Assembly (NCBI GenBank): GCA_051294375.1
Contig: JBJCIZ010000275.1
Location: 28,119-92,118, forward strand
Origin: Paraspadella gotoi
Lineage: Eukaryota; Animalia; Chaetognatha
Direction of reading: 5' to 3'
Length of the DNA stretch: 64,000 nucleotides
Shown: positions 18,905 through 49,277 of the stretch, piece after piece
How positions within the stretch are numbered: the first letter of the stretch is position 1
How the letters are laid out: the number at the start of each line of letters is the position of its first letter
Notes under the pieces: model-generated
The model's database searches: none
The model's input: only the letters and a program-made list of their open reading frames with translations
Told to the model about the DNA's origin: nothing
Made by a program: the position numbers and the translations under genes

Positions 18905-19195
18905 ATGATACAATTTAAAAAAATGATGCAAGTTGAAAAAATTATATTGCAAGTTGAAAAAATTATGCAATTTGAAAAAAATATACAAGTTTGAAAAGAA
19001 TATGCAAGTTGAAAAAAAGTATGCAGAGTTGAAAAATTAGCCACGTGAAAAATATTATGCCAAGGTTAAAAAGTTCATGCAAGTTTGAAAAAACTATGCC
19101 AGTTGAAGAAATTAGGCCAAGTTGAAAAAAAATTATTGCCAAGTTAAAAAAATGATGCGAATTGTTAAAAATATGTAAATTGAAAAAATGATTGA
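18905..19195. repeat. 18-bp minisatellite (TGCAAGTTGAAAAAATTA)n inside a HINE; reverse-strand copies at 33235-33645 and 38410-38810
   Basis: Units directly visible. Gives the spurious (MQVEKI)n ORFs. Confidence 0.9.
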
Positions 19196-22100
19196 GTTGC
19201 AGTATCTTACCTTAATTTTATTGTACAATATCTTAAATTTTAATATAAAACTTGAAGAAGATTTTCGTCATCTGAACATATCACTTTCAGTTGTAACGCA
19301 CTCGTCAAACTATTTATGGTAAATGCTCTGAAGAAATCGAGCAAAACGTTTTCTCTCTTTTTTTTAAATAGTAGTACTAGCGCGTCAAAAATCTTTAGAG
19401 TAAACTCAAAATTTTATTCTGATAGAATTTTTGCCTTTTAAGCTGAACGTTTATGACCATATCTCGGAAATATTGTTTGGAATTTTAAAATGAAATATGA
19501 CACTCATCCTACAGGGACTTGCCATAAATAATTATATACAAAAAATAAATTAAATTAGCTCCCTATGAGGTATCTATATTAAAGGGTGATATAGACAGAG
19601 GAAGGGTGAATTCAGGCTATTAAAATTGTTAAATGCCTGAAAGGGATTAGGATAATAGGCTATTTCAGGAAACACATTGCCAAAGATCATGCTTGATTTA
19701 TGTCAGGCTGTAAGTTGGTTTGAGTCTCTCATCATATGTGTAAAAACACTTGATTCCATCCTGTTGCATTCTGAAGGGCTCGCATTTTTTTCTCTTTCAA
19801 AATCATACAAACATCTGGATATCAAACAGCCAGAACAATTAGACTGCTTCTGTAAGAACAAATTTTCCATCTTTGATTCTGTATATTATAATTGAGAGGG
19901 ATATTTTTCCCTTGAATGACATATAAACATGTAGAAACTATCAGTCTCCACCTTGCTGTGCGGTCCAAGGCCGTTCAAGCGTCGCCGTCCAAAAAGACGG
20001 GTTAATGACAAGCAGTCTTCACTGACTGAAGAATCTCTGCTAAAGTGCTAGAAACGCGAATTTCCCAAAGTAAACGTATATCTTTGGGTGAACACAAAAC
20101 GTAGCAGTAACGTTGGCAATATCTGACAAAAATAAGTAGTGATAAACTGCGTAAAAAACAACGGTTGTTCGCACGAGCGACGTGTATCCGAAAATGTTCA
20201 ACGAAAACAACTGAAAAATCCGCGTCTCAAAAAAATGCCACACGGTAAAAATATATAAAATGACCGATATCGAAAACTGGCGTATGATTAAAGACGAGAG
20301 AGTGACCAAAACAGACACAAAATACGTAGCGAATGTTCTCTCTCACCCCCATCAGTAAAAAAGTACCATCTTTTTACACTAAAGAGAAAAAGAAAAAATC
20401 GCCAGAGTTAAGCATAAAGCAGTACTAAGTCTCAATAGGCCTGAAAAATCACTCCCGCGTACTCTAAAATCGGATCAATGATATAGTTAGATACTTAAGA
20501 ATTGCTACGTGAAAAAGCCCAAGAAGAAAAAAGAGTATCCCCCATCGTAAATTTAAATCAAAATTCCGAATCACATGAGTTTCAGATACTTCAAATTGAC
20601 ACATAAAAAGATAAAAAAATATATCCCCCATCGTCAAATGACAGGTGACTAAATCCAAAAATTTCCAAAAATTTCACAAAAATTTGGGCCAAAAAAAATT
20701 CAAAAATTCCACCAAAATTGCGCAAAATTCAAATTCACAAAATTCGCAAACTTTTTTTCACCTTATCCACATTCTTCAATTTTACACGTTTTCCACATTT
20801 CAGGCAGCTCTTTAGTTCGTTAGGAGTTCTTAAAGTTACACCTTCGACGCGCCGATATCCCTGACTAGGACTTTCATTGCCGACGTCGCCTTGACATTCT
20901 CAGCTCGCGTTTCTTTGTTCTCTTGGCCAGTCATGACCAGCGACTTCGAATGGTGGCGTCCATTGCCAGACGGCACACCCCGAGAGAGTGGAGTGGTGAG
21001 CGGTGTGTCCGAGCTGTAGCATCGAAACACAGCCCCTTTTTGTACACAAAAGGTTTTTTAATATCAGCGCCATCGAAAAGATACAGAAGCACCGAACCAA
21101 TGAAATGGCTTTTTCCACAAAACAAACATGAAGCCTTCGTCGCCATACTACATGTCCGTCGTCGTAAAAGACGGCTGATCTCTCGGGAGATGGCGTCGAC
21201 TTGGGCATCGTCTTGTTCCAGTCCCGTTTCTCCGCCGCGGAATTGGCGGTTCCTTGGAGATGTCGTGGCAATCCTGGGGGACGCAATCCCCCACAAATAA
21301 ATTCGTTGAAAACGTTGAAGAGCAGGAAGCCTTCGTGGAGTTGGAGAGGAAACGGGATCGAATCAAAGGCCCTGTTCTCTCCATTTTTCGTATTTCCCTG
21401 AAGTTCTGAATCCTCTTCAACCGTGCTCGAACCTCTTCTCTTGAAGATTCCCATCATTGTTTCGAGTCGCCCGGTTCAAGTAACGTTGCTTTTAAAACAA
21501 TCAGGATCTCAGGAAGTGATCCATTGACCACCAAGGAATATGTCTTGGTAACTAAATCCGGTGTCTCCCGCCGCTACGGTCCGAGAAATCAAACATGTTT
21601 CAGTCGAATTTCTTCTCTTAACTGCGCTTTTAATCCAAATCTTTAATCGCCGTTATTCCGCAAGCCATATTCATTGTTTTAACTGCTAGAAAAGCCTATT
21701 CAGCTCCAGCGCTTGCGGTCCAACGTGTTTCGACAGCGTCGCCGTCCAAAAAGGGTTATGACAAGAAGTCTCACTGGCACTCGAAAATCTCCGCTAAGCT
21801 GTTAGAACGCGACATTCCCAAAGTTAAGCTATATCTTTGGTGACGACAAACGCTAGCAGAGCGACGTGCAATACGTTTGCTGACAAAATAACGTAGTGAT
21901 GACAAACTCGTAAAAACAGAACGGTGTTTTCGCGTACGAGGGCTGCGACCGTGTATTCCAAATTGTCACAAAAACAAACTGAAAAATCCCGGCTCACCAA
22001 AAACAAATGCCCAATGGTAAAAATATGAAAAATGAACCGATATCGAAACACTGTGTATGATTAACAGAGAGAGAGAGAGACGTGCCAAAAAAGCCGACAC

Positions 22101-23284: not shown

Positions 23285-24507
23285 CACATGGGGAACCACA
23301 ACGTTGAACCCAACACCAACCTCTCACAGGCGGGAAAAAATGTCAACTTGAACACTTTCGAGCTACCATCAGAGTCTAACAACACCGGTAAGCCAACTAA
23401 GACAACAATCGCTTCCAAATGAGGCCGATTGCGACGCTATTTGTCATGCCTTCTGCTCGGCCCAGCGTAGCTAGGCAAGGAACAACCATTACGCAAACAC
23501 CAGCTCTGCAAGTCTAGGAGTCGCCGATAGTCGCGACACCGCCCCATATGATTCACGTTTTCCACACGCCTCAACAGTCGAGGAACTTTGACACGCTACG
23601 CTATCATGGCCGTATTCGGGCCGGCAGCACTCATGGAGCGAACTCCAGATGAAATGATGAGCCTCCGCCGCCGCTCCTCACCGCCGCCACGCAGGCTCGA
23701 ACAAGCTGCACAGACCGGTAACGACTGCCAGATATCGATCTGTCAAACATTGAAATCTGGATTAACAGCGAATCGCAGGCCTCTTATACTCATGCCGGGC
23801 ATTGATCGCTCCAAAAAACGAAAAATTTTGCCGCCAGCTTTAAGAATCTAAAACTAAACGCGTATAAGCCTCGATCCCAAAGTTACATCAGGTTTCCTCT
23901 CTTCGGAGATACAACAAAGCAACATGGTAAACCTCTTTTTCATATCTGAGAAAAGTGTACTAGGCTCACCCGGCCGCGCAACAGACTCGGATGAATCGTG
24001 AAACCGTCAAAATTACTCGCACAACTCTCGATGACGTGCGCAAAGAGAAGGTTCTTCAGGAGCTGCCAGCTGAAATACGCCACCAACTTGAAGACAAAGC
24101 GAGCTTGTTGAAATCGCTAATTGACATTTTGACAACGAGGGAAATCCTAAAATTTGACAAATGTCATCTCTCGTAAACCACGTGAAACAGGGCCACAAAG
24201 GGCGACACAAATCCGAATTGGACGACAAGGTTGGCGTCAATGCCGTCAATGTCAAACCAAAAAGAAGCTTTAATGGAAAGAAGAAGTCAAGTCAAGGACA
24301 AAAAGCTAAACCAAAGCCAAAGCTTAAAACGCTATGCCACAAGCACAACAAGTTCAACAAAGTCGCTTGGTTTTGCGAGCCAGGCTGTGCTAAGTTTGAT
24401 GAGACTGAACGCAAGCACAAGGAAAACGCCAGAGGGGGACACCAACGGTGAACGCCGTCCCCCAAGAATCAAACCGATCACCAGTGACAAACGATTTGCT
24501 CTTCATC
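23285..24507 (+). pseudogene. CsRn1-clade Gypsy gag plus start of protease (inverted duplicate of the 5' part of the minus-strand element)
   Basis: Gag ends in LCHKHNKFNKVAWFCEPGC (C-X2-H-X9-C-X3-C, the CsRn1 CHCC motif). The -1 frame from GGAAAAC at 24421 reads QGKRQRGTPTVNAVPQESNRSPVTNDLLFI. Confidence 0.85.
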
Positions 24508-24869
24508 AGCGGCCATTGGTGCCAGGGGTAAGTCATTCGCCTCCCAACCCAAAGGTCCGGGGTTCTAGTCCGGTGGTCACCTAGCAGTTAAGAGGGACGG
24601 GGCACTTAACCCGCCTGTAACACGGTTTTACAGCCTGATCCGAAAACTCAGGGACTGCTTATATTGAACGGTTCTGTCACTTACACATAACAATTATTAC
24701 TGTCTCTTCATTGGTGAGCCCAACTTCCGAACACAACAGCAACAACAACACTTTCAGGCGACATGCCTCAACTTGGTGACGAACTTTCCACCAACAACAA
24801 TTTACTGAAGAGACGCAACAGACTTCTCCCTTCGGGAGGGGGGGATGTATGGTGGACTAAAATTCATCA

Positions 24870-24941
24870 GCGGCCATTGGTGCCAGAGGCAAGTCATTTG
24901 CTTCCCAACCCAAAGGTCCGGGGTTCTAGCCCGGTGGTTGC
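24870..24941 (+). promoter_or_regulatory. tRNA-derived (Gly-CCC-like) Pol III promoter head in the LTR (also at about 24509-24581)
   Basis: Acceptor-like stem GCGGCCA/TGGTTGC, A-box-like TGGTGCCAGAGG, loop CTCCCAA/TTCCCAA, B-box-like GGTTCTAGCCC. The anticodon stem is broken, so this is not a functional tRNA. Confidence 0.7.
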
Positions 24942-24943
24942 CT

Positions 24944-25019
24944 AGCAGTTAAGAGGGACGGGGCACTTAACCCGCCTGTAACACGGTGTTACAGCCTGAT
25001 CCGAAGCTCAGGGACTGCT
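24944..25019 (+). ncRNA. Twister ribozyme, type-P5 permutation (second copy at about 24583-24659 with a mutated L4 loop)
   Basis: P5 AGCAGTT/GACTGCT; GG-GA-CGG; TAA cleavage motif at 24968-24970; CC-C-GC; P3 CTGTAACAC/GTGTTACAG; P4 CCTGA/TCAGG with loop TCCGAAGC; T1 CCG:CGG; T2 GC:GC. Confidence 0.78.
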
Positions 25020-25699
25020 TATATTGAACGGTTCTGTCACTAACACTTAACAATTATTACTGTCTCTTCAGTCGTCCACTGTGTGTTTGTAAAGTATGAT
25101 GTGAAAATAATATATTGAAAAAGTTTAACAAAAAAATAAGACGATCGTCTTTAGAATCCACCAAAAATCCGAAAAACTTTCCAAAAATTTGAAAATATAC
25201 AGGAGGAAGACCGATGACCAAGGGCTTAGAAGTTCCGGCTGCTGAGTAGACTGATATCGGGATTTTGCTCTTCATTTAGTTGTCCATGTTGTCGTTTTGT
25301 ATTTTTTGTCTCTCCAGAATTTTCTTGAGGACAACCGAGTAGATGGGTCGGATGTTCGGGCCGCTGCTTTATCTTCTTTTTTGTGATTCTTCTCTTGCTC
25401 CATTTTCTTTGGACTCGTCCCGCGTGAAGGCTGGGGAGAAGATGATGCTGGAAGAAAAAAACATAATGGAGGGGAGGGTGGGTCTGGGGGAAGGTGGGGT
25501 TGCTTGCGAGTAAGTGGGGAAGCTGGGGGGGAGGAGGAGGAGGAGAAGAGGAGGAGAAGGAGGAGGAGCGACTCGTCGATTATTGGAGCGAGTGACTCGA
25601 TCCGTTTGGGCCGCTGTCCTAGTTCTCAGGCCGGGTTGGCGACCTTCTGGGCGTCGTTGGGGATGTGCCTAGTCGACCTCCATCGCCTCGTTACTCACC

Positions 25700-26698: not shown

Positions 26699-28891
26699 TT
26701 TTAGTCGGATCTGCTTATCAGCAGATCCCGACTCTATAACTCACTTTTATAAACTCACTTTTCGGTCCGTCGGTCCGCCCCCTCAATATCGTCGGGCACA
26801 CACTTATATCATGTCAGAACATCGAATTATGATAAATTATGCAAAAAAAAATGATGTCCGTCCGTCCGTCTGTCCGTCCGTCCGTCCGTCCGTCCGTCCG
26901 TCCGTCCGTCCGTCCGTCCGTCCGTCCGTCCCCACCTTACAAAAAACACCAATTACTCGTGATTGGATGGATGGATTAAATGAAATTTTGTGTGTGGATA
27001 GGTAAGTGTGTGATTAGAGCTGGATATTAAGTTTCGATGAATCGTTCCGAGTGGAAATGAGTTTAAATGGAAAAACAAAAAAATATATTCACTATTTGAA
27101 CACCAATTGCTCATGAGTGGATGGGCTGATTGACCTGGAATTTTGTATGTGGGTAGGAAAGTGTGTGATTGAACAGGAAATCAAGTTTCGATGGATAGTT
27201 TGAGTGGAAATGAGTTTAAATGGAAAAAAAAAAAAAACCTGTTTTACTATTGATTATGCTTCTTTTTCCTTTTATATTAAATGTATCTGCAGGATGTATT
27301 AATAAATCAAATAATTAATCAGTTAATTAATCAATTAGTAAATAAATTAATCAATAATTAATTAATTAGTCAATCAATCCGTCCATCCGTCCCATCTTAG
27401 CCAAAAAGCTCCAATAACTCGTGATTGGCTGTGTGGATGGAATTAATTTTGTGTGTGGGTAGGAAGTGTGTGATAAAGCTGGAATAAAATTTCGATGGAA
27501 TCGTGTGAGTGGAAATTAGTTTAATGGAAAAAACATAAGTCGAATTACTAAAATCTTTTTACTTATTTTAACAATAAATATTCCAATTAATCATAATTGG
27601 ATGGATAGATTGAGTTGAAATTTTGTGTGTGGGGTAGGAAAACGTATGACGAAGCTTGATATAAAGTTTCAGTGGAAACGTACCAGTGGAAATGAGTTTA
27701 AATGAAAAAAATATAGGTCACATTTACTTGAATCTTTTATTTATTTTAACCCATGATAGATTTGAGATGAAATTTTGGTGAGCCGGTAGGAAAGTGAGTG
27801 AAGAAGCTAGTATAAAGTTTTGACGGAATGCAAGTTGAAAAAATTATGCAAGTTGAAAAAATGATGCAAGTTAAAAAAATTTAAAAGCATAAGGATCGTC
27901 GCTATTGCATAAAAGAGAGAGAGAGAGAGAGAAAGAGAGAGTGAGAGAGAGAGAGAGAGAGTGAGAGAGAAAGAGAGAGAGTGAGAGAGAGAAGAGACAG
28001 GAGACATAAAATAAAAAAATCTTAAAAAGACTCAGATCGAGCCAGAGCCACTATCATAGAAAAATTAATGAAAAAACCCGGGAAAAAAACGAATGAATCA
28101 TGCGATAACGAATTGTTGATGTACTAGTAATTGATTGAGGTAATACTAATGATTGATGTATATAGTAATTATTGATAATAGGAATTGATTATTGATTCGA
28201 TGATAATCAATTATTGATGCGATGATAGTCATTCACTGCTGTGATGATAGTCATTCAGTGATGCGATATTGTCATTCATTGATTCGATGATTGTCATTCA
28301 TTGATGCGATGGATAGTCAATAAACAAACAAATGCGTGTATGAGTGAAAGAGAGAGAGAGACGAGAGAGAGAGAGAAAGAGAGAGAGAGAAGAAAGAGAG
28401 AGAGAGAGAAAGAGAGAGAGACGAGAGAGAGATAGAAAGAAAGAGAATAAATCCACGAAAAATCTCGGATGAAAATATGGAATTTTGTATTGAAAAAAAG
28501 CGCGGAATAAATGGCAATAATAAAAAGTTTTTAGAAGGAAAAAAATAATCAGAATTTTTCAAAAAACAAACGATCACGCAAAAGATCGGACAGATAGGAC
28601 AGACACACACAGAGAGACAGAGAGACAGAGAGAGAGAGAGAAAAGAGAGAGAGACAGCCGCTGCAGAGAAAAAGAGAAAGAGAAGGCGATATATAATAAT
28701 TAAAAGAGAGAGAGAGAGAGAAGCTCTACAGCCCCTTTACTCGTTAAAGAATCAGCAGTACTTATGGCGCCGCACGCTAGCGTGAGCTATTCTCTACCCA
28801 AAGGACCGGTTCGCGCCCTGTTCGCGGCATCGTTTTTTACATTAGATGAAACCCACATTATATTTAAAAATTTTTTAAAAAAAAGAGAGAG

Positions 28892-28922
<31 letters not shown>

Positions 28923-29452
28923 CTGGACAGACGCTGCAGAGCGAACTCGTTTTAGAAGAAAGCAGTGACGGAGAAAAAGAGAGAGAGAGAGAGACGACAT
29001 ATAATTAAAATTTTTGTTTTGAAATAAAACATAACAAATACCAATATTGATATGAAACATGAGAATTTTAAAGATCTTGATGATTAGAAGCCATATATGA
29101 AATTCAACTCCCTATGATATCACACTTTCAGAAGCCATGATTGCAAAAAGCGAGACCGAAAGCGATAAACCGAAAAAAATCTAGACAGGACGGGCTTTGC
29201 CCGCTGGCTGATAATAGAGGATATTTGTTTGTTTTGATAAAATGTAAACAAAACATTTAATAACTGTCCTGACTCAATTTTAAGGAATCGATGATGACAA
29301 GCTGAATATAAATTATAATTAATCTATTAATTAATTAATTAGTTAATTAATCTATTAATTAATTAATTAATCTATTAATTAATTAATTAATTAATCAATT
29401 AATTAATTAATTATCGTAGGCAGATCCGACATTGTTTGCTCAAAACTTGTTT
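26699..29452 (+). mobile_element. Full-length HINE/DINE-1-like element, copy B (about 2.75 kb)
   Basis: 5' hairpin subTIR, (GTCC)n at 26855-26930, internal tandem subrepeats and (GA)n tracts. 3' subTIR GCAGATCCGAC, then a GTTTG-CT-CAAA(A)C stem-loop and TTT. Inserted into a T-run with no distinct TSD. Confidence 0.85.
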
Positions 29453-32101
29453 CTAGTTCACGTTTAGCGATAGCAAGCTTTTCTGCGTCGAGTCGGCGTG
29501 CTCTTGACTGACAGGGTCGACCTTCTGTCGGAATTGAAATGAGTTACACCATGTTTTGGTTACTTTTAGTTCGAACGTTGACGTCGAGAGGGATGAAAAT
29601 TATTTAAGGAGTTTATAGAATTTTTCTCATTTTGATCTACAAATTACATGAGTTGATTCCTCTGATGCCGTCGACGCAGCGATTGTGGAGTAGTCGTGCA
29701 AATCGGAGTAGTAAATCATCACAGTGATTTGGCACAAAAAGTTTTCAGCTAAAAAGTCAATGCCAAGGATGTGTTGCCTTACCATCAGCCACAACGAACT
29801 CGTAATGAAATTTTTGATTCCCTAACTTTACAGTTGATTTCCCATTACATGCGATTGGCGAGGCGTGGCGCCTGGAGCTTGATCTCCGGGCAGGGCCCTG
29901 TTGATGCTGTTGTTGAGTCGGCAGGACGATTGAGAGTAGGGATCCTCCATCTACTAGCCATTTGTTGATCGCTGGCGTCGTGGATGAAGAGCAAATCGTT
30001 TTGTCGCTGGTGATCGGTTTGATGCTTGGGGGACCGGCGTTCACCATTGGCGTCCCCCTCTGTCATTTCCCTTGTGCTTGCGTTGAGTCTTATCAAACTT
30101 AGCACCAGCCCGGCTCGCAAAACCAGCTTTTGCCGAACTTGATTTGCTTGTGGCATAGCGTTTTAAGCTTTGGCTTTGGTTTAGCTTTTTGTCCTTGACT
30201 TGACTTCTTCTTTCCCTTAAAACTTCTTTTGGTTTGACATTGACGGCGTTGATGCCAACTTGTCATCCGATTCGGATTTGTGTCACCTTTGTGACCCTGT
30301 TTGACGTGGTTTACGAGAGATGACGTTTGTCGAATTATAGGATTTCCCTCGTTGTCGAAATGTCGATCAGTGATTTCACCAAGCTTGCTCGCCGACAACT
30401 TGTCGGCTTTGTCTTTCAGGTAGAGCGTATTTCAGCCCGGCAGCTCCTGAAGAACCTTCTTTTTGCACACTCATCGAGAGTTGTCGAGTAATTTTGACGG
30501 TTTCAATTCATCGAGTCTGTTGGTGCCGGGTGAGCCCATACTCTTTTGTCAGATAACTGAAAAAGAGTTCCATGTCGCTTCTGTTGTTTCTCCATAGAGG
30601 AACTGATTAATCTTAGGATCAAGCTTCACGCTTATTTTAGATTCTAAGTGGCGAATTTTGTTTTTGGAGCGACGATGCCGGCATGAGTAAGCAGCTCGAT
30701 TCGTTTATCCAGATTTCAATGTTTGACAAATGGATATTTGGCAAGTCTGTCTTCTGGTTTGGTGCTCGCTCTAGAGCCCGCGTGGCGGCGGCGAGAGCGT
30801 CGCGGAGCTCGTCGTTCTTGTCCTGGAGTTCTTGTTAAGTGCCACCGCCCGTAGCCTGACGACGTCTGCAAAGTTCTCGCTGTTAGCTCGTAGAAAACTG
30901 AACGATGGGGCGGTGTCGGCGACTCCTAGGACCTGCAGAGCTGCTGTTGTGTAATGTTGTTCCTCCTAGCTACGCTGGGCCGAGCGAAGGCATGAGCGTA
31001 GGTCGGAATCGCTCATTGAAGCAATTGTTGTCCTTAGTTGGCCTTCACTGGTGTTTTAAGACCCCACAGTAGCTCGAAAGTGTTTGAGTTGTGTTTATCT
31101 CCCCTTGAATGTTGGTTTGGTTCAACGTCGTGGTTCACCACGTGTGGCGCAGTCCAGAGTTGCGTGACAGCGGTGACGAAAAGCCGTGATAATGTCGTGA
31201 CTGAGTTCCAAGCGCGTGACAGATTATAACAAGTTAATAAGAAGTATCGCAGCACAAAAGAATATTGTTTCTTTTTGAGTTGATTTGTTTTCAATTGAGA
31301 AGAATTATTGAAGATCAAATTAAAACCTTTTTTCTAGTAAATATTGTAGAGTTTTACATTTTTAGAATAAAACATTGTTGAAAAATATTGATAATATTTA
31401 TATTTATTTCGAGATAAAAACAAGACTGATTCATCAAGGTTTACAATCAATACTGAAAAACAATCAGAAGAGGAGAAATTTGTTTTTGGCAGCCAGACAT
31501 CTTCTGTTGAACAGTTAAAACAAAAAGCTTCAAATCTTGAATTAAAGCTTAAATACTTTTCCCTGATCCAGTGTCCGCAAATTTCACCAAAATCAACTAA
31601 TTCACTTTAACATGATGGTATCATATTAGAATAACTAAATAAATGTAAAGAAACATTTTGAGAGACCTTCGGACACTTTGCCAGAATTTAACGCCATTTG
31701 TGAAACCGGAACATATCTCAAATACGTTTATATGTCATGAAGGGAAAAAATCCCTCTCATTTCTATGTTGCATCTCTAGCTACTGAACTCTGACTGAGCT
31801 GTCAAGATGAATAAAAGGTTTGAATAAATTTCATTTCTATTTACAACATTTAAGCAATTTTGTGTGTGGAGAGGAACTGAACTCCTTATCTCTTGCTTTC
31901 CCTTTTTATATCTTTCAAGGACCCCCTTGAAGATATGCGCAACCGGATCTTTGGATTTCACTGGGATTGTGAAATCCAAGCCGCCTTTTCTCAGGTGGGT
32001 GGGAAAACCACAAACATCTTCCCTGAATTCTATTTTTTAACTTTTATCCCCCCACGATTTCTTTCGACCATTTAGTTATCAAGGATCAAAGATCGTGATG
32101 C

Positions 32102-32380
32102 TGTAGTCGGGCATTGCCTAGGTTCACCCCGCCTATAAGCATGACACCTTCAGTCCTGACCCGGTGGCTCATGGAGTCAAGCCATCAGCTCATGACCACT
32201 AGGTACCGGGTTCAATCGACCCGCGTACCTACCTGTGGAAGCGTGAGGACGGCCGTAAGCCGCCTTGGGGGCGTGGCAACCCTCAAGCCTGGTTCCAAGC
32301 CCAGGACACGTTCCTATGGCTACTAAGGGGTTATAGAAGTTCGGATAGTCATCTTCAGCCCACTTAGCGCCTTATCCACA
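32102..32380 (+). mobile_element. Solo LTR (inner, family 2) with tRNA-like head and twister ribozyme, 4-bp TSD ATGC; duplicate at 37262-37546
   Basis: Termini TGTAG...TCCACA with ATGC flanks (37258-37261, 37547-37550). A-box-like TGGCTCATGGAG, CTCATGA loop, B-box GGTTCAATCC. Confidence 0.82.
32232..32319 (+). ncRNA. Twister ribozyme, type-P5 permutation (family 2)
   Basis: AAGC-GT-GA-GGA-CGGCCG-TAA-GCC-GC; P3 CTTGGGGG/CCCTCAAG; P4 CCTGG/CCAGG with loop TTCCAAGC; T1 TCC:GGA. Confidence 0.75.
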
Positions 32381-35300
32381 ATGTACATCTATATAAAATC
32401 AAGATGAAAATTTGTTTGTACAGAAGCAGTCTATTTGTTCTGGCTTGTTTGATATCAGATGTGATGATTTGACAAGAGAAAAAAAAATGCGAGCCCTTCA
32501 GATGCAACAGGATCGGAATCAAGTGTTTTAACACATCTGATGAAGACTGCAACCAACTTACAGCCTGACATATCAAGCATCATCTTTGCAATGTGTTTCC
32601 CTGAATAGCCATTATCCCTAATCCCCTATCAGCATTTTAACAATATTAATACCAATCACCCTTCTCTTGTCCTATATCACCCTTTAATTAGATACCTCAT
32701 AGGAGAGCTAATTTTAATTCATTTTTTTATATATTTTATGCCAGTCCCGTAGGATGATGTCAATATTCACTTGCAAAAACGTTTTAAAATTCTACAATGT
32801 TCCGAGATTGTCATAAACGTCAGCCTTAAAGGTAAAATTTAAATCAGAATAAAATTTTGAGTTTCTCTAAAGATTTTCTGACGCGCTAATACTAAACCTA
32901 TTTGAAAAAAATAGAAAAACATTTTGCTGATTTTCTTCAAGCATTTAACAATAAATGAGTTATGCGATGGTACACTGAAAGTGATGTCTCAGATGACGAA
33001 AAAAATTTCTTCAGTTTTATAATTAAAATTTAAGTATTTGTACAATAAAATATAAGTAAGATACTCCCGCTTAGCCGAAACTTTAATTAACAAAAATTTG
33101 TACGCGTAGTTCAAATCTTTAGTCTTTGATGGTAAAAACAAGTGAGCAAACATGTCGGATCTGCCTACAACAATTAAGCGTATCTGCTAATCAGATGATA
33201 ATCAAATATTTTTTTAAATTTTTTTAACTCGCAGCACTTTTTAACTGCATCATTTTTCAACTCGCATAATTTTTTCCATGCACATAATTTTTTCAACTCA
33301 TCATTTTTCAATTACATCATTTTAAACAATTCGCATCATTTTTTTTAACTTGCATCATTTTTCAACTTGCTATGATTTTTTCAACTTGCATTATTTCTTC
33401 AACTTGCATTATTTCTCAACTTGGCATAATTTTTTCAACTTGCATAATTTTTTCACTTGCATAATTTTTCACTTGCATAATTTTTTCAACTTGCATTAAT
33501 TTTTTCAACTTGCATATTTTTTCAACTTGCATAATTTTTCAACTTGCATACTTTTCACTTGCATATTTTTTCAACTTGCATAATTTTTTAAACTTGCATA
33601 ATTTTTTCAACTTGCACAATTTTTTTAAATTGTATCATTTTTTCAAATTAATTAATTAAAACATTTATTAGGTATCATAAATAAAAAAATATTCAAGTAA
33701 ATGTGACTTATGACATATCTTGGAAACTNNNNNNNNNNNNNNNNNNNNNNNNNTAGAAAGAGAAAGAGCGATATATAATAATTAAAAAGAGAGAGAGAGA
33801 GAAAGCTCTACAGCCCCTTTACTCGTTAAAGAATCAGCAGTACTTATGGCGCCGCACGTAGCGTGAGCTATTCTCTACCCAAAGGACCGGTGTTCGCGCC
33901 CTGTTCGCGGCATCGTTTTTTACATTAGTGAACCCACATTATATCTAAAAATTTTTTGTAAAAAAAAAGAGAGAGGAGAGAGAGAGAGAGAGAGAGAGAG
34001 AAAGAAGCTGGACAGACGCTGCAGAGCCGGAACTCGTTTTTAGAAGAAGCAGTGACGAGAAAAAGAGAGAGAGAGAGAGACGACATATAATTAAACGTTT
34101 TTGTTTTGAAATAAAACTAAACAAATACCAATATTGATATATGAAACATGAGAATTTTAAAGATCTTGATGATTAGAAGCCATATATGAAATTCAACTCC
34201 CTATGATATCACACTTTCAGAAGCCATGATTGCAAAAAGCGAGACCGAAAGCGATAAACCGAAAAAAATCTAGACAGGACGGGCTTTGCCGCCTGGCTGA
34301 TAATAGAGGATATTTGTTTGTTTTGATAAAATGTAAACAAAACATTTAATAACTGTCCTGACTCAATTTTAAGGAAATCGATGATGACAAGCTGAATATA
34401 AATTATAATTAATCTATTAATTAATTAATTAGTTAATTAATCTATTAATTAATTAATTAATCTATTAATTAATTAATTAATTAATAATTAATAATTAATT
34501 ATCGTAGGCAGATCCGACATTGTTTGCTCAAACTTGTTTCTAGTTCACGTTTAGCGATAGCAAGCTTTTCTGCGTCGAGTCGGCGTGCTCTTGACTGACA
34601 GGGTCGACCTTCTGTCGGAATTGAATGAGTTACACCATGTTTTGGTTCTTTTAGTTCGAACGTTGACGTCGAGAGGGATGAAAATTATTTAAGGAGTTTA
34701 TAGAATTTTTCTCCATTTTGATCTACAAAATTAACATGAGTTGATTCCTCTGATGCCGTCGACGCAGCGATTGTGGAGTAGTCGTGCAAATCGAGTAGTA
34801 AATCATCACAGTGATTTGGCACCAAAAAGTTTTCAGCTAAAAAGTCAATGCCAAGGATGTGTTGCCTACCATCAGCCACAACGAACTCGTAATGAAATTT
34901 TTGATTCCCTAACTTTACAGTTGATTTTCCCATTACATGCGATTGGCGAGGCGTTGGCCGCCTGGAGCTTGATCTCCGGGTCAGGGCCCTGTTGATGCTG
35001 TTGTTGAGTCGGCAGGACGATTGAGAGTAGGGATCCTCCATCTACTAGCCATTTGGTTTGATCGCTGGCGTCGTGGATGAAGAGCAAATCGTTTTGTCGC
35101 TGGTGATCGGTTTGATGCTTGGGGGACGGCGTTCACCATTGGCGTCCCCCTCTGTCATTTCCCTTGTGCTTGCGTTGAGTCTTATCAAACTTAGCACAGC
35201 CCGGCTCGCAAAACCAAGCGTCTTTGCCGAACTTGATTTGCTTGTGGCATAGCGTTTTAAGCTTTGGCTTTGGTTTAGCTTTTTGTCCTTGACTTGACTT

Positions 35301-38300
35301 CTTCTTTCCCTTAAAACTTCTTTTTGGTTTGACATTGACGGCGTTGATGCCAACTTTGTCATCCGATTCGGATTTGTGTCACCCTTTGTGACCCTGTTTG
35401 ACGTGGTTTACGAGAGATGACGTTTGTCGAATTATAGGATTTCCCTCGTTGTCGAAATGTCGATCAGTGATTTCACCAAGCTTGCTCGCCGACAACTTGT
35501 CGGCTTTGTCTTCAGGTTAGAGCGTATTTCAGCCAGCAGCTCCTGAAGAACCTTCTTTTTGCACACGTCATCGAGAGTTGTGCGAGTAAATTGTTACGGT
35601 TCTCAATTCATCGAGTCTGTTGGGTGCCGGGTGAGCCCATTACTCTTTTGTCAGATAACTGAAAAAGGGTTCCATGTCGTTCTGTTGTTTCTCCATAGAG
35701 GAACTGATTAATCTTAGGATCAAGCTTCACGCTTATTTTAGGATTCTAAAGTGTGCGAATTTTGTTTTTGGAGCGACGATGCCGGCATGAGTATAAGCAG
35801 CTCGATTCGATTTATCCAGATTTCACTGTTTGACAAATGGATATTTCTGGCAAGTCTGGTCTTCTGGTTTGGTGCTCGCTCTAGAGCCCGCGTGGCAGGC
35901 GGGCGAGAGCGTCGCGGAGCTCGCGTTCTTTTGTCCTGAGTTCTTGTTAAGTGGCCACCGCCCGTAGCCTGACGACGTCTGCAAAGTTCTCGCTGTTAGC
36001 TCGTAGAAAACCTGAACGATGGGGGGTGTCGGCGACTCCTAGGACCGCAGAGTGCTTGTTGTGTAATGTTGTTCCTCCTTAGCTACGCTGGGCCGAGCGA
36101 GAAGGCATGAGCTAGGTCGGAAATCGCCTCATCTGAAAGCAATTGTTGTCCTTAGTTGCCTTCACTGGTGTTTTAAACCCCGACAGTAGCTCGAAAAGTG
36201 TTTGAGTTTGTGTTTATCTTCCCCTTGAAATGGTTGGTTTGGATTCAATCGTCGTGGTTCAACCTACGTGTGGCGGCAGGTCCAGAGTTGCGTGACAGCG
36301 TGAACGAAAGCTCGCTGAAAGTGATTATGCTCTGTGACTGAGTCCAAGCGGTGGACAGATTTAACAAGCTTAATAAGAAGTTTATCGCAAGCCACAAAAG
36401 AATATTGTTTTCTTTGAGTTGAAATTGTTTTCTCAAATTGAGAAGAATTTATTGAAGATTCAAATAATAACCTTTTCTTAGTAATATTTGTAAGTCATTT
36501 TACATTTTTAAAATTAAAACATGTTGAAAAATACTTGATAAATATTTATATTTATTTCGAGAATGAAAAACAAGCTGATTCATCAAGGTTACATATCAAT
36601 ACTGAAAAACAATCAGAAGAGGAGAAATTTGTTTTTGGCAGCCAGACATCTTCTGTTGAACAGTTAAAACAAAAGGCTTCAAATCTTGAATTAAAGCTTT
36701 AAATACTTTTCCCTGATCCAGTGTCCGCAAATTTCACCAAAATCAACTAATTCACTTTAACATGATGGTATCATATTAGAATAACTAAATAAAATGTAAA
36801 GAAACATTTTGAGAGACCTTCGGACACTTTGCCAGAATTTAACGCCATTTGTGAAACCGGAACATATCTCAAATACGTTTATATTGTCATGAAGGGAAAA
36901 AATCCCTCTCATTTCTATGTTGCATCTCTAGCTACTGAACTCTGACTGAGGCTGTCCAAGATGAATAAAAGGTTTGAATAAATTTCATTTCTATTTACAA
37001 CAAATTTAAGCAATTTTGTGTGGAGAGGAACTGAACTCCCTTATCTCTTGCTTTCCCTTTTTATATCTTTCAAGGACCCCCTTGAAGATATTGCGCAACC
37101 GGATCTTTGGATTTCACTGGGATTGTGAAATCCAAAGCCGGCCTTTTCTCAAGGTGGGTGGGAAAACCACAAACATCTTCCCTGAATTCTATTTTTAACT
37201 TTTATACCCCCCACGATTTCCTTTCGACCATTTAGTTATCAAGGATCAAAGATCGTGATGCTGTAGTCGGGCATTGCCTAGGTTCACCCCGCCTATAAGC
37301 ATGACACCTTCAGTCCTGACCCGGTGGCTCATGGAGTCAAGCCATCAGCTCATGACCACTAGGTACCGGGTTCAATCCCAACCCGGTACCTACCCTGTGG
37401 GAAGCGTGAGGACGGCCGTAAGCCGCCTTGGGGGCGTGGCAAGCCCTCAAGCCTGGTTCCAAGCCCAGGACACGTTCCATGGCTACTAAAGGGGGTTATA
37501 GAAGTTACGGATAGTCATCTTCAGCCCACTTAGCGCCTTATCCACAATGCTACATCTATATAAAATCAAAGATGGAAAATTTGTTTGTACAGAAGCAGTC
37601 TATTTGTTCTGGCTTGTTTGATATCAAGATGTTGATGATTTGACAAGAGAAAAAAAATGCGAGCCCTTCAGATGCAACAGGATCGGAATCAAGTGTTTTT
37701 ACACATCTGATGAAGACTCGCAACCAACTTACAGCCTGACATAAATCAGCATCATCTTTGCAATGTGTTTCCTGAATAGCCATTATCCCTAATCCCCTAT
37801 CAGCATTTAACAAATTTAATAGCCAATCACCCTTCCTCTGTCCTATATCACCCTTTAATTAGATACCTCATAGGAGAGCTAATTTTAATTCATTTTTTTA
37901 TATATTTTTATGCCAGTCCCCGTAGGATGATGTCAATATTCACTTGCAAAAAACCGTTTTAAAATTCCTACAATAGTTTCCGAGATATGGTCATAAACGT
38001 CAGCCTTAAAAGGTAAAATTTATCAGAATAAAATTTTTGAGTTTCTCTAAAGATTTCTGACGCGCTAATACTAACTATTTGAAAAAAATAGAAAACATTT
38101 TGCTGATTTCTTCAAGCATTTACAATAAATGAGTTATGCGATGGGTACAACTGAAAGTGATGTCTCAAGATGACGAAAAAAATTTTCTTCAAGTTTTATA
38201 TTAAAATTTAAGTATTGTACCAATAAAATTAAGTAAGATACTCCCGCTTAGCCGAAACTTTTAATTAACAAAAATTTGTACTGCGTAGTTCAAATCTTTA

Positions 38301-38313
38301 GTTCTTTAATGGT

Positions 38314-38868
38314 AAAACAAGTTTGAGCAAACAATGTCGGATCTGCCTACAACAATTAAGCGGTAATCTGCTAATCAGATGATAAATCACAATATTTTTT
38401 TAAATTTTTTTTAACTCGCATCACTTTTTTAACTCGCATCATTTTTTCAACTCGCATAATTTTTTCCATGCACATAATTTTTTCAACTCATCATTTTTTC
38501 AATTTACATCATTTTAACAATTCGCATCATTTTTTTTAACTTGCATCATTTTTTCAACTTGCATGATTTTTTCAACTTGCATTATTTCTTCAACTTGCAT
38601 TATTTCTTCAACTTGCATAATTTTTTCAACTTGCATAATTTTTTCAACTTGCATAATTTTTTCAACTTGCATAATTTTTTCAACTTGCATAATTTTTTCA
38701 ACTTGCATACTTTTTTCAACTTGCATATTTTTTTCAACTTGCATAATTTTTTAAACTTGCATAATTTTTTCAACTTGCACAATTTTTTTAAATTGTATCA
38801 TTTTTTCAAATTAATTAATTAAAACATTTATTAGTAATCATAAATAAAAAATATTCAAGTAAATGTGA
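38314..38868 (-). mobile_element. 5'-truncated HINE (3' subTIR, stem-loop and expanded 18-bp satellite); duplicate at 33135-33710
   Basis: AAAACAAGTTTGAGCAAACAATGTCGGATCTGCC is the reverse complement of the HINE 3' end. Confidence 0.75.
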
Positions 38869-39238
38869 CTTATGACCATATCTTGGAAACTATTGTAGGA
38901 ATTTTAAAATGGGTTTTTGCAAGTGAATATTAATTTAACATCATCCTCCAGGGACTGGCATAAAAATATATAAAAAAATTAATTAAAATTAGCTCTCTTA
39001 TGAGGTATCTACTTATACTCTCTGATACTCATTGTCTACATTTAGGTACAAATCGTGTTCTCATACGTTAAATATTAAAAAATGCATAATTATTATTAAT
39101 AAATCAATTATCAAATGATTTCATACATTAAAAATAATATGAAATTATTATTTATTTAAATATAAGCAAATAAATAAATTATAAATTAATAAAATTAGTA
39201 CTGTTTTAAATACAAACAAAATTAAACATTAAACTTTA

Positions 39239-40494
39239 TATGATAATCCTTTCTTTTCGTTGTTAAAGCTGATTTAGAGAAAAACAAAGTTTTATTAGTT
39301 TTCAACGAATTTGTTTTTTATTGGTAACAGACATGTTTCGGCTTTGGTTTTCAAGCCTTTCTTCCCAGTGTTGTTTAGTTTGTGAAATTAGACAAAAATA
39401 TTGTGCAAAATAAGAAGAGAGAAAGGAGAGAGAGAGAAGAGAGAGAAGAGAGAGAGAAAGGAAGTGAAAGTTTCCAACAAAAGTGGTGGAGACAGAACAG
39501 TGGTCAGAGGTGAGACAGGTAATTGAACACAGATTGAGTGAGTTTTTTGAAAAGAAATGAAAATTGTTAGAGAAGAAAGAGAAGAGAGAGAGATAGACTT
39601 AACAAGAGGATAATAAATAATTAAAAATATACATTGTGCAATGTACAACAGTGATAAATGTTTAAAAAAAAAAAAAAAAACTGAAAAGATTGTGTCGAGA
39701 ATTTTTAACAATGTGTAAAAGAGTGAATAAATAATTCAATATATGTTACTAATTAGCTAAAGAAATTTGGTGAAAATGTGAAGTTGAAAAATGAAAGAAA
39801 GTTTAGTTTTATATTTTTATTGCTATATAAGAGCCTAAAGAATTGAAATTTAAGGAGTAAGAAAGAGCTCAAAATGAGTCTGGCCCCCCTTGGTTGTGCA
39901 AAGGAAGGACATAGGGAGAGTGTGACCGAACTTGTTAAGTGTTGGACTGGGGATCTTTCCTTCTGGCTCAATCCCCAGTTCCAACACTTACACAGTTCGG
40001 TCACAGCTCTCCTTCTCAGCCACTGACGCCGCCAATGACCGTCACCATCCCCTATGGTCCTTCCTTTGCACAACCAAGTGGGCCAGCTTCATTTGAGCTC
40101 TTTCTTACTCCTTAAATTTCAATTTCCTTAGGCTCTTTATATAGCAATAAAAAATATAACCTAAACTTTCTTTCATTTTTCAACTTCAACATTTCACCAA
40201 AATTTCTTTAGCTAATTAGTACATATATTGAATTATTTATTCACTCTTTTACAATTGTTAAAAATTCTCCACCAATCTTTTTCAGTTTTTTTTTTTAAAC
40301 ATTTATCACTGTTGTACATTGCACAATGTATATTTTAATTATTTATTTATCCCTGTTTAAGTCTATCTCTCTCTCTCTCTCTTTCTCCTAACAAATTTCA
40401 TTTCTTTCAAAACTCACTCAATCTGTGTTCAACTTACCCTGTCCTCACCTCTGACCACTGTTCTGTCTCACCACTTTGTTGGAAACTTAACTTC

Positions 40495-40530
<36 letters not shown>

Positions 40531-40664
40531 TCTTCTTGCACAATATTTTTGTCTAATTCACAAACTAAAAACACTGAAGAAGGCTTGAAAAACCAAAGCC
40601 GAAACATGTCTGTTTACCAATAAAAACAAATCGTTGAAAACTAATAAAACTTTGTTTTTCTCTA
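39239..40664. mobile_element. Penelope-like element relic: two inverted pseudo-LTR arms forming a 1.4-kb palindrome
   Basis: Arms at about 39273-39915 and 40049-40664 are reverse complements, each with a hammerhead near its outer end. Flanked by the 15-bp direct repeat AAACATTAAACTTTA (39224-39238, 40665-40679). Confidence 0.78.
40569..40615 (+). ncRNA. Minimal type I hammerhead ribozyme (inverted, indel-damaged copy at about 39326-39372)
   Basis: AAACA-CTGAAGA-A-GGCTT..AAGCC-GAAAC-ATGTC|TGTTT: CUGANGA/GAAA core, helix I AAACA/TGTTT, palindromic ACATGT helix III, GUC cleavage triplet. Confidence 0.85.
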
Positions 40665-40901
40665 AAACATTAAACTTTAAAGGGTCGGAGCTGGGAGATG
40701 GAGTTGAAGCTGTCTCAAAATTTTTATTAGAGCTGGAGTTGGAGCTAGAGCCGGAGTTGGAGCTGAAAAATATTTTTGGCTGGAGCTGGAGTTGGAGCTG
40801 GAGCTGGAGAAAAAATGGCCAGCTTCACAACCCTGCATATAAATTATACAATACATATTATATATATGTTAATGTATTTTAATGTATGTTAATGTATACA
40901 T

Positions 40902-41306: not shown

Positions 41307-42240
41307 GTATTAGACGAGAATCTCGATTTAAAAAAGATTCAACATTTTTCTTATATAGATTTCCGTTCAAATCTGACTACCCAAATTGCAAACGCGATTG
41401 CCAAAAATCCGGGTAGAAATCAGTTGTAAAAACGCAGGATTCCGATAGCGTTACATCTGAAGAGCTTGTCCTATTCGTTTTTTCACATTTGATGAAGGAT
41501 TTGATATCAAACAAGCCAGGGGAAATGCACTCCTCATAGTCAGAGAATTTTCAAACCTCATTTTTACTATAGAAATGAAAGGGAAAGTTTACAAACTTAA
41601 AATTGCAAACGGGATTGCTATATGTTCCTGTTACATGAGAGACTTCGAATTTCGCGATTCCGATAGCTTTGTTTCTGAATAGCTTGTCCTATTTTTCATT
41701 TTTCATTTTATAATGATTTTGACATAAAATGATCAGGTTAAAATGAAATAGTCTGGTTTGAATCGCGAAATTTTTATTTAAAAGACATTAAAAGGAAGGT
41801 TTGAGAAAAAACTGTTTTTTCCTAATGTCTTTTGAAGAATAAAGATAAAGGGATGGCAATAGTACCAAAATGAAACCATAATCATAGGGCACTTACAAGA
41901 TACAATTTTTAGAATTTACTTATACTGAAACCTCTTACAGGGTAAGCGTGTCAACTAAGTCAAAATTTATAATGAATTTTAAAACTAAATGACACCCATA
42001 AGAATTAATGAAAATTAAATTATTTTTTAATGATTCTGAAAGAAAAAGGCTAAATTATACTCTAGTAAAACTTTAAAGTTTTTTTGGATAAAGAATGTGA
42101 ATTTTTTGTCACTTAAATATTTGCTTGTCTGATTTTACAAGCATGCTTACAAAATCTACAAAAATATTATTTACCCAAATCACAGCCTAAGTATTTATCC
42201 TTCTTTTCCACAGAAAAGTAAACATTATCTTATTATCTAC

Positions 42241-42510
42241 GTGGGCTGAAGATGACTATCCGTAACTTCTATAACCCCCTAGCAGCCTGGAACGGGTCCT
42301 GGGCTTGGAACCAGGCTTGAGGGTTTGCCAATGCCCCCAAGGCGGCTTACGGGCCGTTCCTCACGCTTTCCGCAGGGTAGGTACGGGTTGGGGATTGAAC
42401 CCGGTATCTAGTGGTCATGAGCTGATGGCTTTACTCAATGAGCCACCGGGTTCACAACTGAAAGTGTCATGATTCTAGGCGGGGTTGAACCTAGGCAATG
42501 CCCGACTACA
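42241..42510 (-). mobile_element. Family-2 tRNA/twister LTR copy, missing about 17 bp of the 3' end; twister at about 42286-42376
   Basis: Reverse complement of 32102-32363, with an intact GA-GGA..TAA-GCC-GC..CCTGG-TTCCAAGC-CCAGG core and P5 CCTGCGG/CCG-TTC-CAGG. Confidence 0.8.
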
Positions 42511-43189: not shown

Positions 43190-43293
43190 TATACATTCTT
43201 ACGATTATCTGGACAATCTAAAATAAGTTATTGGATCCAAAGTATTTCGAAGTACTGTTATATGTTATTTTCAAAGCTTCTGTATCAACTTAC

Positions 43294-45543
43294 CTTGATA
43301 TTTATTTGCTGTTCCTCTTGGACAATCTTTCATTTCTTCAGCAGCAACCTGGTCAACATAAGATCCAGGAGGAGCTTTTACACAGCTGCTTCTCCCTTGT
43401 AAGGGCTGGAAAAATCCAATCATACAACTCCTACAACCAAGAGCTCCGACCCCTTTTTGATATGTTCCAGCTGGGCATAGTTTGCACTCACTGTCAGGAC
43501 TATCTGAATAACTACCTGCAGGACATGTACCATCGCAGGTTACAGCCCCTAAAAGAGTTGAATGAGAACCAGCTGGACACCGTTTACATTCGGACATTGC
43601 CGGTCTGTCTTGATGTGTTCCCATGGGACATAATTTGCATATTGCAGTTCCAAACTCGGTAGAATAATGACCCGGTTCGCAAGGATGACAAATGTGTTGT
43701 CCTCTATCAGGCTGCTCATATCCTCTTGGACATGGAGAACATTGTTTTAAACCATATGTGCTGCTTACAGTTCCTGATTCACACTGAATGCAGGAAAAAG
43801 ATCCAAAATTATTTGAAAAATGTCCAATATCACATTTCTGGCAACTCTCGGATCCTACATTATTACTAAATTGTCCTGGTTTACAACTTTTACAATATTT
43901 TGAACCTAATTTTTGAGTGTAGTGGCCCTTTGCACAAGAAAAGCAGAAGTCTGATCCAGTAAAATTTATGAATTTTCCTTTGGGACATGCTTGGCATTGT
44001 ATTGAACCAGCTGATTGTGAAAAATAACCCAGTGGGCATTTAACACAGGAATGATTTCCTACTTTGGATTTAAAGGTTCCAACTGGACATTTAGTACAAA
44101 GAGTTACATCTTCTGAAAGGATTTCATAACCTTTTGGACACATTTTTACACACGTTGTTTTTCCTTTATTTATTATTTTTAGATTTTTACAATCTCTACA
44201 TGCTGAAGCATCATAAGGATTTATGCATTCACCTCTTTTTTTGCATTGATCATGACAATCTAATCTACACATGAAATCAATAAGGGTCCATGGCTTTTCG
44301 CATTGCAATTTCCTGTGCCCTTGAATAACTTGTATGTTTAAAAAATCAACACTTTTTTCACCTGATCCAAAAGAATAAAACCGAAGTGGTTCTCTTATAC
44401 CTCCAGTATCGAACTCGGCAGTTGCAAAGACTCTGTTGTTTTCAGAATTCGGTTGCGATTTGCCGTACATTAGAATAAGATCATTGTTTGGTAAATGATG
44501 TATACAAACAAAAAAAGATTCAAAGAGGGAAGGATCACCAAGAGAACCAATACTAAGTCCAATTCTTGCAGTTACTTGCTTAAAACCTTTATAAAATCCA
44601 ACACCTTCAGAATTTATCTGTACATAATACCAAGTGGAATGAGTTTTAGGAACAGTAGCAAATATAATAAAGATATCGCCCTCAGTTGCTGCCATAAAGT
44701 CGATGCAGGAAAGATTTTTGCTTCTATCTATTGTATGAGTATTGGACCAATAAACGTTGCATGGAATTGCTCCAGAACGCTGACCTTCCTTTGTCATTGT
44801 TGAGTTGAAAAAAGAAATTTCAAGAACTCTTGCTGCCGGATAGTTTGCAAAGCCACTGTCAAGATCTGGGACAACTTTTGAGTTAACTTCAAAGTCTGAC
44901 TTTGTCATGACAAGAAATCCTGCAAGATCATAGCTGAATAAAACTCCATTGATACAAACCGGATGATTCAGGGAACCTACTTCTGGTAGTTCACAACCGG
45001 ATAAACTGTCAAATTTATAAGAATCAGGATAAAGGGTGTACCACTTTTTTCCTCGAAAAAGTATATCTACAGTCTGGTCTTTTTTAATGAGACTACCAAT
45101 GTCGTGAGGTAGTTGAAATTGAACTTTGAATTTCTCTGACTTGAGTTTAAAATATGATGGGTATTTTGTTTTGTTTCCGTTTCCAATATAAGCAAGAGTA
45201 TCTGTTTCACATCCAGGTTTTCCACCCTTTAATACAAATGATGAGGTTGGTGCTGGACCCTCCATCATGTATATAGCAATAGCTTGTTGTAAAGATCTCA
45301 ATTTTATTGTAAATTTTTCTTTAAAATCATCAAAGGATTTATATCTACAAAAAACTTTTTTTTCTATTAACTGAGAATAATTTCCAATAGGAATCTCTTC
45401 TAAACGAACATAATAATACAATCCAGTTTTTTCATCTTTTTTTAAATTCTTGATATATTCGGGATCCTGATTTACACAGCCAAAATCTTTATTACCAGTA
45501 GGGAACAAGGCATCCATATTAATGTTTAACAGGTTGTCAATTT
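43294..45543 (-). CDS. Large exon of a Cys-rich, probably extracellular protein: unknown N-terminal region, a beta-rich domain resembling farnesoic-acid-O-methyltransferase-like modules, a furin-like Cys-rich repeat, then tandem GCC2/GCC3 (ephrin-receptor-like) CxxCPxG repeats
   Basis: Uninterrupted 760-codon ORF (43271-45553) with about 14 CxxC(P)xG units. Splice donor CAAG|GTAAGT at 43294/43293 and possible acceptor TTTTAG| at 45544. Start and end of the gene are unresolved. Confidence 0.85.
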
Positions 45544-46961: not shown

Positions 46962-47114
46962 TGTGGATAAGGCGCTAAGTGGGCAGAAGATGACTATCCG
47001 TAACTTCTATAATCCCCTCAAGCAGACATGGAACGAGTCCTGGGTTTGAAACCAGGCTTGAGGGTTTGCCATGCCCCAAAGGCGGCTTACGGCCTTCTTC
47101 ACTCTTCCCGCAGT
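46962..47114 (-). mobile_element. 3' half of a family-2 tRNA/twister LTR with a mutated twister core
   Basis: Matches 32232-32380. The loop reads TTTCAAAC and the T1 partner is AGA, so pairing is lost. Confidence 0.75.
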
Positions 47115-49028: not shown

Positions 49029-49277
49029 AGAAAAATCGCGACGCCAGACTCAATGTCAATACAACTTATTTCAGACGCCCCAGCCCCCCCCAACTACCCC
49101 TCCTGCTCTCCCTGCTCTCTCTGCCCCAATCTCCACCTCGTCCAGTCCCACCTCCTTTCCTCATGTCGATCTCCATTCCCCCCCTCCCTGGCTCTACTTC
49201 AAACGACAAAGATCACATTAGAAACATTTACGTGCAATTGTGTCAATTTCAAAACGGAAAAATGTAAGCGTAATCAC

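Follow-up and report, generated by a model that had tools for sequence, protein, structure and literature searches.

Two kinds of retroelement are among those closest to the locus described here. Helenus elements (TRIMp3) carry a tRNA-derived head in which the promoter boxes are retained and tRNA function is gone; a SINE insertion has been proposed as their origin, and their transcription by Pol III is putative (Kojima 2024, PMC10886601). Plant retrozymes are described with a layout of LTR, ribozyme, PBS, PPT and 4-bp target-site duplication (TSD), together with a circle model (Cervera, Urbina and de la Pena 2016, PMC4918200), and their promoter is located upstream of the ribozyme (PMC9695139). 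Animal retrozymes are stated, in the available parts of two sources, to be without LTR, PBS and PPT, LTR retrozymes being plant elements with type III hammerheads (PMC7761336, PMC7229834); animal retrozyme RNA is closed into circles by RtcB, and circles also arise from tandem twisters in mammalian cells (PMC7229834). The element that we describe joins these two known kinds: it is an animal LTR with a tRNA-derived head and a twister-like motif, a combination for which we found no published description. Full-text searches, with hits judged mostly by title and the start of the abstract, turned up no report of a Helenus with a ribozyme, of an LTR containing a twister or of a twister acting as a dimer, and the available text of a 2026 preprint on animal retrozymes (10.64898/2026.07.22.740005) contains neither "twister" nor "tRNA".

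The element (family 2) lies in a 64-kb window, the whole stretch of Paraspadella gotoi DNA that was analysed (64,000 nt), to which all coordinates refer. Its insertion and further copies are as follows.

32098..32101, plus strand: 5' target-site duplication, ATGC
32102..32380, plus strand: family-2 solo LTR, TG...CA, 279 bp, delimited by its ends, depth edges and mixed flanks
32381..32384, plus strand: 3' target-site duplication, ATGT at the 32102 copy versus ATGC (37547-37550) in the duplicate
37262..37546, plus strand: duplicate of the 32102-32380 insertion, 96% identical, inside a 5.1-kb duplication, with a perfect ATGC/ATGC duplication of the target site
42237..42510, minus strand: independent family-2 copy, 3' end truncated, 89% identical
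46962..47108, minus strand: independent family-2 copy, 5' truncated, pseudoknots T1 and T2 broken

The initial annotation had placed here a solo LTR of about 280 bp with TG..CA ends and a 4-bp TSD of ATGC. The exact length is 279 bp, with TG at 32102 and CA at 32380. The TSD is perfect in the duplicate at 37262 and agrees in three of four positions at the 32102 copy, where ATGT is probably a one-base read deletion; for family 2 as a whole it is read from one insertion, the other two copies being truncated. An empty target site for this insertion was not found within the 64-kb window. The tandem duplication itself (28671-33728 and 33757-38891) is 94% identical with many indels and a 25-N gap between its units, and may be an assembly or haplotype duplicate; the many indels suggest a noisy long-read assembly. 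Each unit ends in an 18-bp AT-rich minisatellite (33250-33660 and 38400-38890), with related copies at about 18850-19200 on the other strand. Elsewhere in the window, a 760-codon open frame with cysteine-rich repeats (43271-45553, minus strand) has named protein matches only in Branchiostoma, at 26-33% identity, to uncharacterised proteins of which many carry a MACPF domain, and large inverted-repeat elements at 39270-40669, 49267-50273 and 61935-62486 are possibly foldback or MITE-like DNA transposons.

Family 2 is an abundant dispersed repeat with ends exactly at 32102 and 32380. In the four public runs used for the read-depth check (of 11 listed; three studies), summed contig depth rose ~150-275-fold at 32102 and fell after 32380. 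Per run, 75-140 contigs extended beyond the 5' edge (three runs) and 20-94 beyond the 3' edge (four runs), and flank agreement among the loose contig ends was 0.39-0.43 at both edges, a low value that indicates many different flanks on either side. No full-length family-2 element is present in the 64-kb window. The search for such an element with PBS and PPT that had been proposed earlier gave one contig with a hint of a PPT, a G-rich tract ahead of the LTR start, which is the only hint of a full-length form. The short non-coding two-LTR form with PBS and PPT is present in family 1, which we used for comparison.

24502..25070, plus strand: family-1 two-LTR element
24502-24710, plus strand: its 5' LTR, truncated
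24711-24845, plus strand: its internal part, 135 bp, with PBS and PPT
24846-25070, plus strand: its 3' LTR

The family-1 PBS matches the tRNA-Trp-type PBS of Kojima's Fig. S2 in 12 of 14 bases (PMC10886601). At 24500-24510 the truncated 5' LTR abuts a degenerate Gypsy gag-protease copy, the junction being a short CTTCATC microhomology; further copies of this Gypsy element occur at about 29983-31513 and 34600-36660 (minus strand), and stops and frameshifts interrupt all of them.

The proposed link to Helenus, including the 4-bp TSD reported for animal Helenus, holds for the tRNA head, the TG..CA ends and the TSD alike. As in Helenus, tRNA-derived boxes A and B lie within a TG..CA LTR that is non-coding, flanked by a 4-bp TSD and found as solo LTRs, and family 1 shares the Gypsy-type PBS and PPT; unlike most Helenus, both families are longer 3' of the head and have no T-run (available text of PMC10886601). 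The head comprises the following parts.

32158..32231, plus strand: tRNA-derived head, two hairpins instead of a cloverleaf (tRNA register; fold z -3.08)
32165-32176, plus strand: box A-like segment of the head
32191-32193, plus strand: CAT at tRNA positions 34-36, in the register counted from box A at 32165
32200..32231, plus strand: extended T-arm hairpin spanning box B; its 13-bp stem is perfect in the duplicate and damaged in the 32102 copy
32209-32219, plus strand: box B-like segment of the head, GGTTC

Exact tRNA numbering is kept from position 8 to position 60. The earlier description of a Met-CAT-like head is correct in that CAT falls exactly at positions 34-36 with the boxes in register; the head is not callable as a tRNA. 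ARAGORN found no tRNA genes in the window, the Rfam tRNA model gave no match to the head at E<=10, and the anticodon stem is paired at two of five positions. This stem, together with a T-loop insertion, rules out a functional tRNA-Met. The head matches the Helenus pattern of kept promoter boxes without tRNA function (PMC10886601). One 7-base motif occurs at both of its ends (32160-32231), the two occurrences being alternative partners for the box B strand, a possible structural switch.

Downstream of the head lies the predicted ribozyme, with the following parts.

32234..32311, plus strand: P5-permuted twister-like motif
about 32234-38 with 32307-11, plus strand: P5
32243-44 with 32259-60, plus strand: P2
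32245-46, plus strand: GA, the predicted general-base G and the A next to it
32247-49 with 32294-96, plus strand: T1 pseudoknot
32250..32255, plus strand: 6-nt palindromic linker replacing P1, a candidate two-copy P1 duplex
32256..32257, plus strand: predicted scissile U/A bond, by homology to the twister consensus
32262-63 with 32299-300, plus strand: T2 pseudoknot
32264-87, plus strand: P3, 8 bp
32288-305, plus strand: P4/L4, with a 5-bp P4

The core motif, T1, P2, P4, the spacings of 6 nt ahead of UAA and 3 nt after it, and U32256/A32257 all agree with the initial annotation, which had overlooked the absent P1, the short P2, a competing hairpin and the palindromic nature of the linker. In the alignment of copies, the UAA of the cut site (32256-58) and GA (32245-46), the latter comprising the general-base G and the A, are invariant in six of six rows. 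Both pseudoknots, T1 (3 bp) and T2 (GC/GC), are present, T2 being broken in only two of six copies, both decayed, and the 5-bp P4 capped by an L4 of the form U-NNN-AAGC is paired in 100% of cells. P2 consists of 2 bp and one pair beyond a bulge, with a 5' strand of 3 nt in all six rows versus 4 nt in published twisters; the 4-bp P2 of type P5 is absent, and no insertion at this place occurs among the 12 listed of 56 indel rows from reads. A P1 stem is likewise absent, only the 6-nt linker being present.

Compared with the type-P5 twister (RF02684), the motif thus shares the element order, the UAA cut site, GA, T1, T2, P4 and the L4 consensus (PMC5408937, PMC11662667, as far as available). It differs from that type in lacking a monomeric P1, in the 3-nt instead of 4-nt 5' strand of P2, in having both P3 and a closing P5, and in its score. 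Rfam Twister-P5 (RF02684) aligned 32242-32304 over the whole model at 17.1 bits (E 0.61), below the gathering score of 37.6; a second RF02684 score of 16.8 bits is also below it. At gathering score the 64-kb window has no Rfam match, family 1 has no match to Rfam twisters at E<=10, and no Rfam hammerhead match was found in the window. A relaxed P5-twister descriptor without P3 or P5, written after the sequences had been seen, gave four matches in the window, all of them LTR copies (three of four family-2 and one of two family-1 LTRs, the missed copies being decayed). Dinucleotide shuffles of the family-2 and family-1 LTRs matched it in 2/60,000 and 4/60,000 cases, respectively, and 40 shuffles of the whole window gave two matches. 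As a chance control, all pairings occurred together at none of 144 loci with the core letters (viral 20 + 14 + 16, metagenome 94). The viral and metagenome scans found no relatives of the element, and an exact 21-mer had no match in metagenomes. The MFE z-score is -0.8.

Among ~1,950 twisters tested by CHiTA, P1 was dispensable, bulges and deletions in P2 were tolerated, and upstream hairpins reduced cleavage (available text of PMC11662667); an older review cites the suggestion that the active site may be disturbed when P2 changes in length (PMC5408937). Judged by its sequence, the motif is a twister-like variant and not a canonical type-P5 member. The absent P1, the short P2 and the conflicting literature on P2 lead us to this label and to rate self-cleavage in some form as likely. 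A weak-P1 twister in an animal retroelement has a parallel in the Perere-3 RTE T-variant twisters of Schistosoma mansoni, which differ in their P1-type topology and in their place at the 5' end of a non-LTR element that has no LTR, PBS or tRNA head (PMC8501958, as available). The ends of the family-1 P3 (24974-24992) resemble, by eye, the Schistosoma RTE-associated twisters in Table 1 of that paper, and the twister module may possibly derive from an RTE 5' end by permutation.

Selection on ribozyme structure had been proposed on the grounds that the helices of the two families differ in sequence yet keep their pairing. This is the case for T1 (TCC:GGA vs CCG:CGG), P2 (GC/GT vs CC/GG) and P4. 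Across the six window copies of both families, both partners differ in 10 of 24 pairs (two of three in T1, one in P2, five in P3, one in P4, one in P5), 93.7% of cells pair, and slid-register controls yield at most four two-sided changes. No pair is broken by a between-family difference, unpaired cells being confined to single copies. The differences lie between two families, so that the effective n for covariation is 2. Together these results support selection on a twister-type structure, in line with the original proposal, and the changes in the T1 pseudoknot are not producible by hairpin-copying mutation. The best-supported variants in reads avoid the core: none of the 40 listed substitution rows (of 76) falls in 32241-32272 or 32278-32305, positions of the P3 loop vary, and a C at 32308, which restores P5, accounts for ~98% of read depth.

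The description of the two families as sequence-unrelated goes too far. Local alignment of the whole LTRs gives a score of 54 against a shuffle maximum of 48 (0/1000), and the head (0/1000) and the twister (6/1000) align colinearly; only the LTR ends do not align. Shared constraint accounts for part of this alignment. Both families also have the 6-nt linker, the one-base P2 deletion with its bulge and the same P3 and P4 ends, oddities that are dispensable for twister function and thus point to one ancestor, so that families 1 and 2 are, on sequence grounds, probably one lineage. Shared linker length, P2 deletion and helix ends speak against an independent origin of the two, which we reject. 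The further claim of a recurring class is consequently not shown by families 1 and 2; independent recurrence comes from two wasp Helenus LTRs with a hammerhead, as read by eye.

In these LTRs, Helenus-2_SyJa and Helenus-2_SyUm of Synergus, CUGAUGA and GAAAC cores appear by eye directly 3' of the tRNA head, arranged as in a type III hammerhead. The LTRs are 277 bp long, have a 4-bp TSD and 12-nt complementary hammerhead loops, and show no T-run between head and motif. The available text of PMC10886601 does not mention this hammerhead; in its main text, as available, "ribozyme" occurs in one reference title only and "twister" never. Within the available supplement, none of 13 "ccaagc" and 7 "cgaagc" matches has the twister L4 context, a search that a motif split by a line break could escape, and by eye no twister was seen among the animal Helenus LTRs of parts 5-9. 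The P. gotoi LTRs resemble those of Synergus in the order of tRNA head and ribozyme motif and in the 4-bp TSD, and the family-1 PBS is similarly of tRNA-Trp type; they differ in being twister-like, whereas the Synergus motif reads as a type III hammerhead. From their sequences, the Synergus Helenus-2 elements are candidate animal LTR retrozymes.

Like plant LTR retrozymes, the elements have a ribozyme motif in the LTR, 4-bp TSD, solo LTRs and a probable Gypsy helper, and family 1 has PBS and PPT; plant LTR retrozymes differ in their type III hammerheads, their highly paired circles of 600-800 nt and their lack of a tRNA-type promoter (PMC4918200, as available). The type III hammerhead of LTR retrozymes is absent here, the motif being twister-like, and the highly self-paired monomer is not seen in family 1, whose 361-nt cut-to-cut unit, folded as a circle from one noisy copy, gives z -0.29, with 30 of 100 shuffles as stable. 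We put at roughly 50% the probability that the 32102-32380 family is a Pol III-driven, Helenus-type LTR retrozyme. Of this, the data show the anatomy of the LTR, its many copies, boxes A and B in tRNA register, the twister architecture, compensatory changes between two families and, in family 1, a PBS and a PPT; the steps that follow are proposed. Pol III would start at the head, upstream of the entire ribozyme, and would read on, since there is no T4 run. The ribozyme would then cut in each LTR, the unit RNA would be ligated into a circle, a tRNA-primed Gypsy reverse transcriptase would copy the circle beyond unit length, and integrase would insert solo or full copies with 4-bp TSDs, a route modelled for plant retrozymes (PMC4918200). 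The absence of a T4 run is weak as evidence and was dropped as a strong argument, since 61% of shuffles also lack one.

The linker suggests how cutting might be controlled. In family 2 its self-duplex is worth -10.7 kcal/mol, the chance of a 6-nt palindrome being ~0.016 for a feature spotted post hoc; in family 1 it is self-complementary at four of six positions (-2.1 kcal/mol). Nested folding, which leaves out pseudoknot energy, favours by 8-15 kcal/mol a competing hairpin that hides T2 in single copies of both families. Taken with these models, the palindrome suggests cutting by paired copies. A single copy might be held in the competing hairpin, and with two LTRs on one RNA the linkers might form a common P1 with the two halves exchanged, a scheme that we regard as possible, with the odds leaning against it. 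Each cut site would thereby gain a P1, and the competing hairpin of family 2 would lose one strand. Short palindromic helices force dimeric hammerheads (PMC4209133), and the minimal hammerheads of Penelope-like elements similarly have a short palindromic helix, too weak alone, that is completed by two copies; they belong to another ribozyme class and host element, and for twisters the parallel is an analogy only (available text of PMC4209133).

The same structural weaknesses allow a reading in which no circle is needed. An active but slow ribozyme would replace the Pol III terminator, and the useful RNAs would be those cleaved in the 3' LTR but not in the 5' LTR, which would keep a terminal repeat of head and half ribozyme for linear strand transfer. 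A T-run just past the tRNA is seen by eye in most Helenus LTRs and in neither of our families nor the hammerhead-bearing wasp LTRs (PMC10886601, as available); slow cutting would follow from the absent P1, the short P2 and the competing hairpin, and the family-1 circle is not specially stable. However, fish Helenus also lack the T-run and show no ribozyme by eye, the ribozyme does not differ between the copies of a family, so that any position bias would depend on timing alone, and a 2',3'-cyclic-phosphate end is a ligase substrate. We consider both the replacement of the terminator and the linear route unlikely.

The ribozyme could instead be a passenger, formerly selected and now inactive or irrelevant, brought in when a tRNA-headed SINE with an RTE- or Penelope-type twister inserted in an ancestral LTR. 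Kojima's SINE-insertion origin of Helenus (PMC10886601), the by-eye resemblance of the family-1 P3 ends to Schistosoma RTE twisters (PMC8501958), the absent P1 and the short P2 would fit such a history. The compensatory changes, T1 included, postdate the split of the LTR families, and the core is free of the subfamily variants found in its flanks (40 of 76 substitution rows listed), which makes this history distinctly unlikely.

Retroviral dimer-initiation loops offer a parallel for a non-catalytic role, in which the fold and its GC-rich palindrome would serve RNA dimerisation or packaging into the particle of a helper. The perfect 6-nt palindrome of family 2 and the need of TRIMs for packaging in trans agree with such a signal, but the catalytic G and A, UAA, AAGC and both pseudoknots, superfluous for dimerisation, are kept in both families, and the family-1 linker pairs weakly; we judge it improbable. 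A chance fold in a GC-rich repeat, to which the Rfam E-value of 0.61, the MFE z of -0.8 and the post hoc tuning of the descriptor might point, is largely refuted by the shuffles (2/60,000 and 4/60,000), the 0/144 outside loci and the compensatory changes, and has next to no probability left.

The preferred reading, a Pol III-driven, Helenus-type LTR retrozyme, can be extended to a new class of animal LTR retrozymes with their own Pol III promoter and interchangeable ribozymes (twister here, hammerhead in Synergus), in which a domain-swapped dimeric twister would be off in solo LTRs and monomeric circles and would cut only when both LTRs are transcribed; in this full form the proposal is speculative and on balance doubtful. 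The finding joins the tRNA-promoter TRIMs (Helenus) with LTR retrozymes, which have been described as plant-only and hammerhead-only. It suggests, in a form open to test, how an LTR element transcribed by Pol III could set its RNA ends despite identical LTRs, and twisters would acquire a second natural function beside the processing of RTE 5' ends. A self-contained unit of promoter, twister, insert and twister would be nature's counterpart to engineered systems for circular-RNA expression and, if true, dependence on two copies would be a new mode of regulation for the twister.
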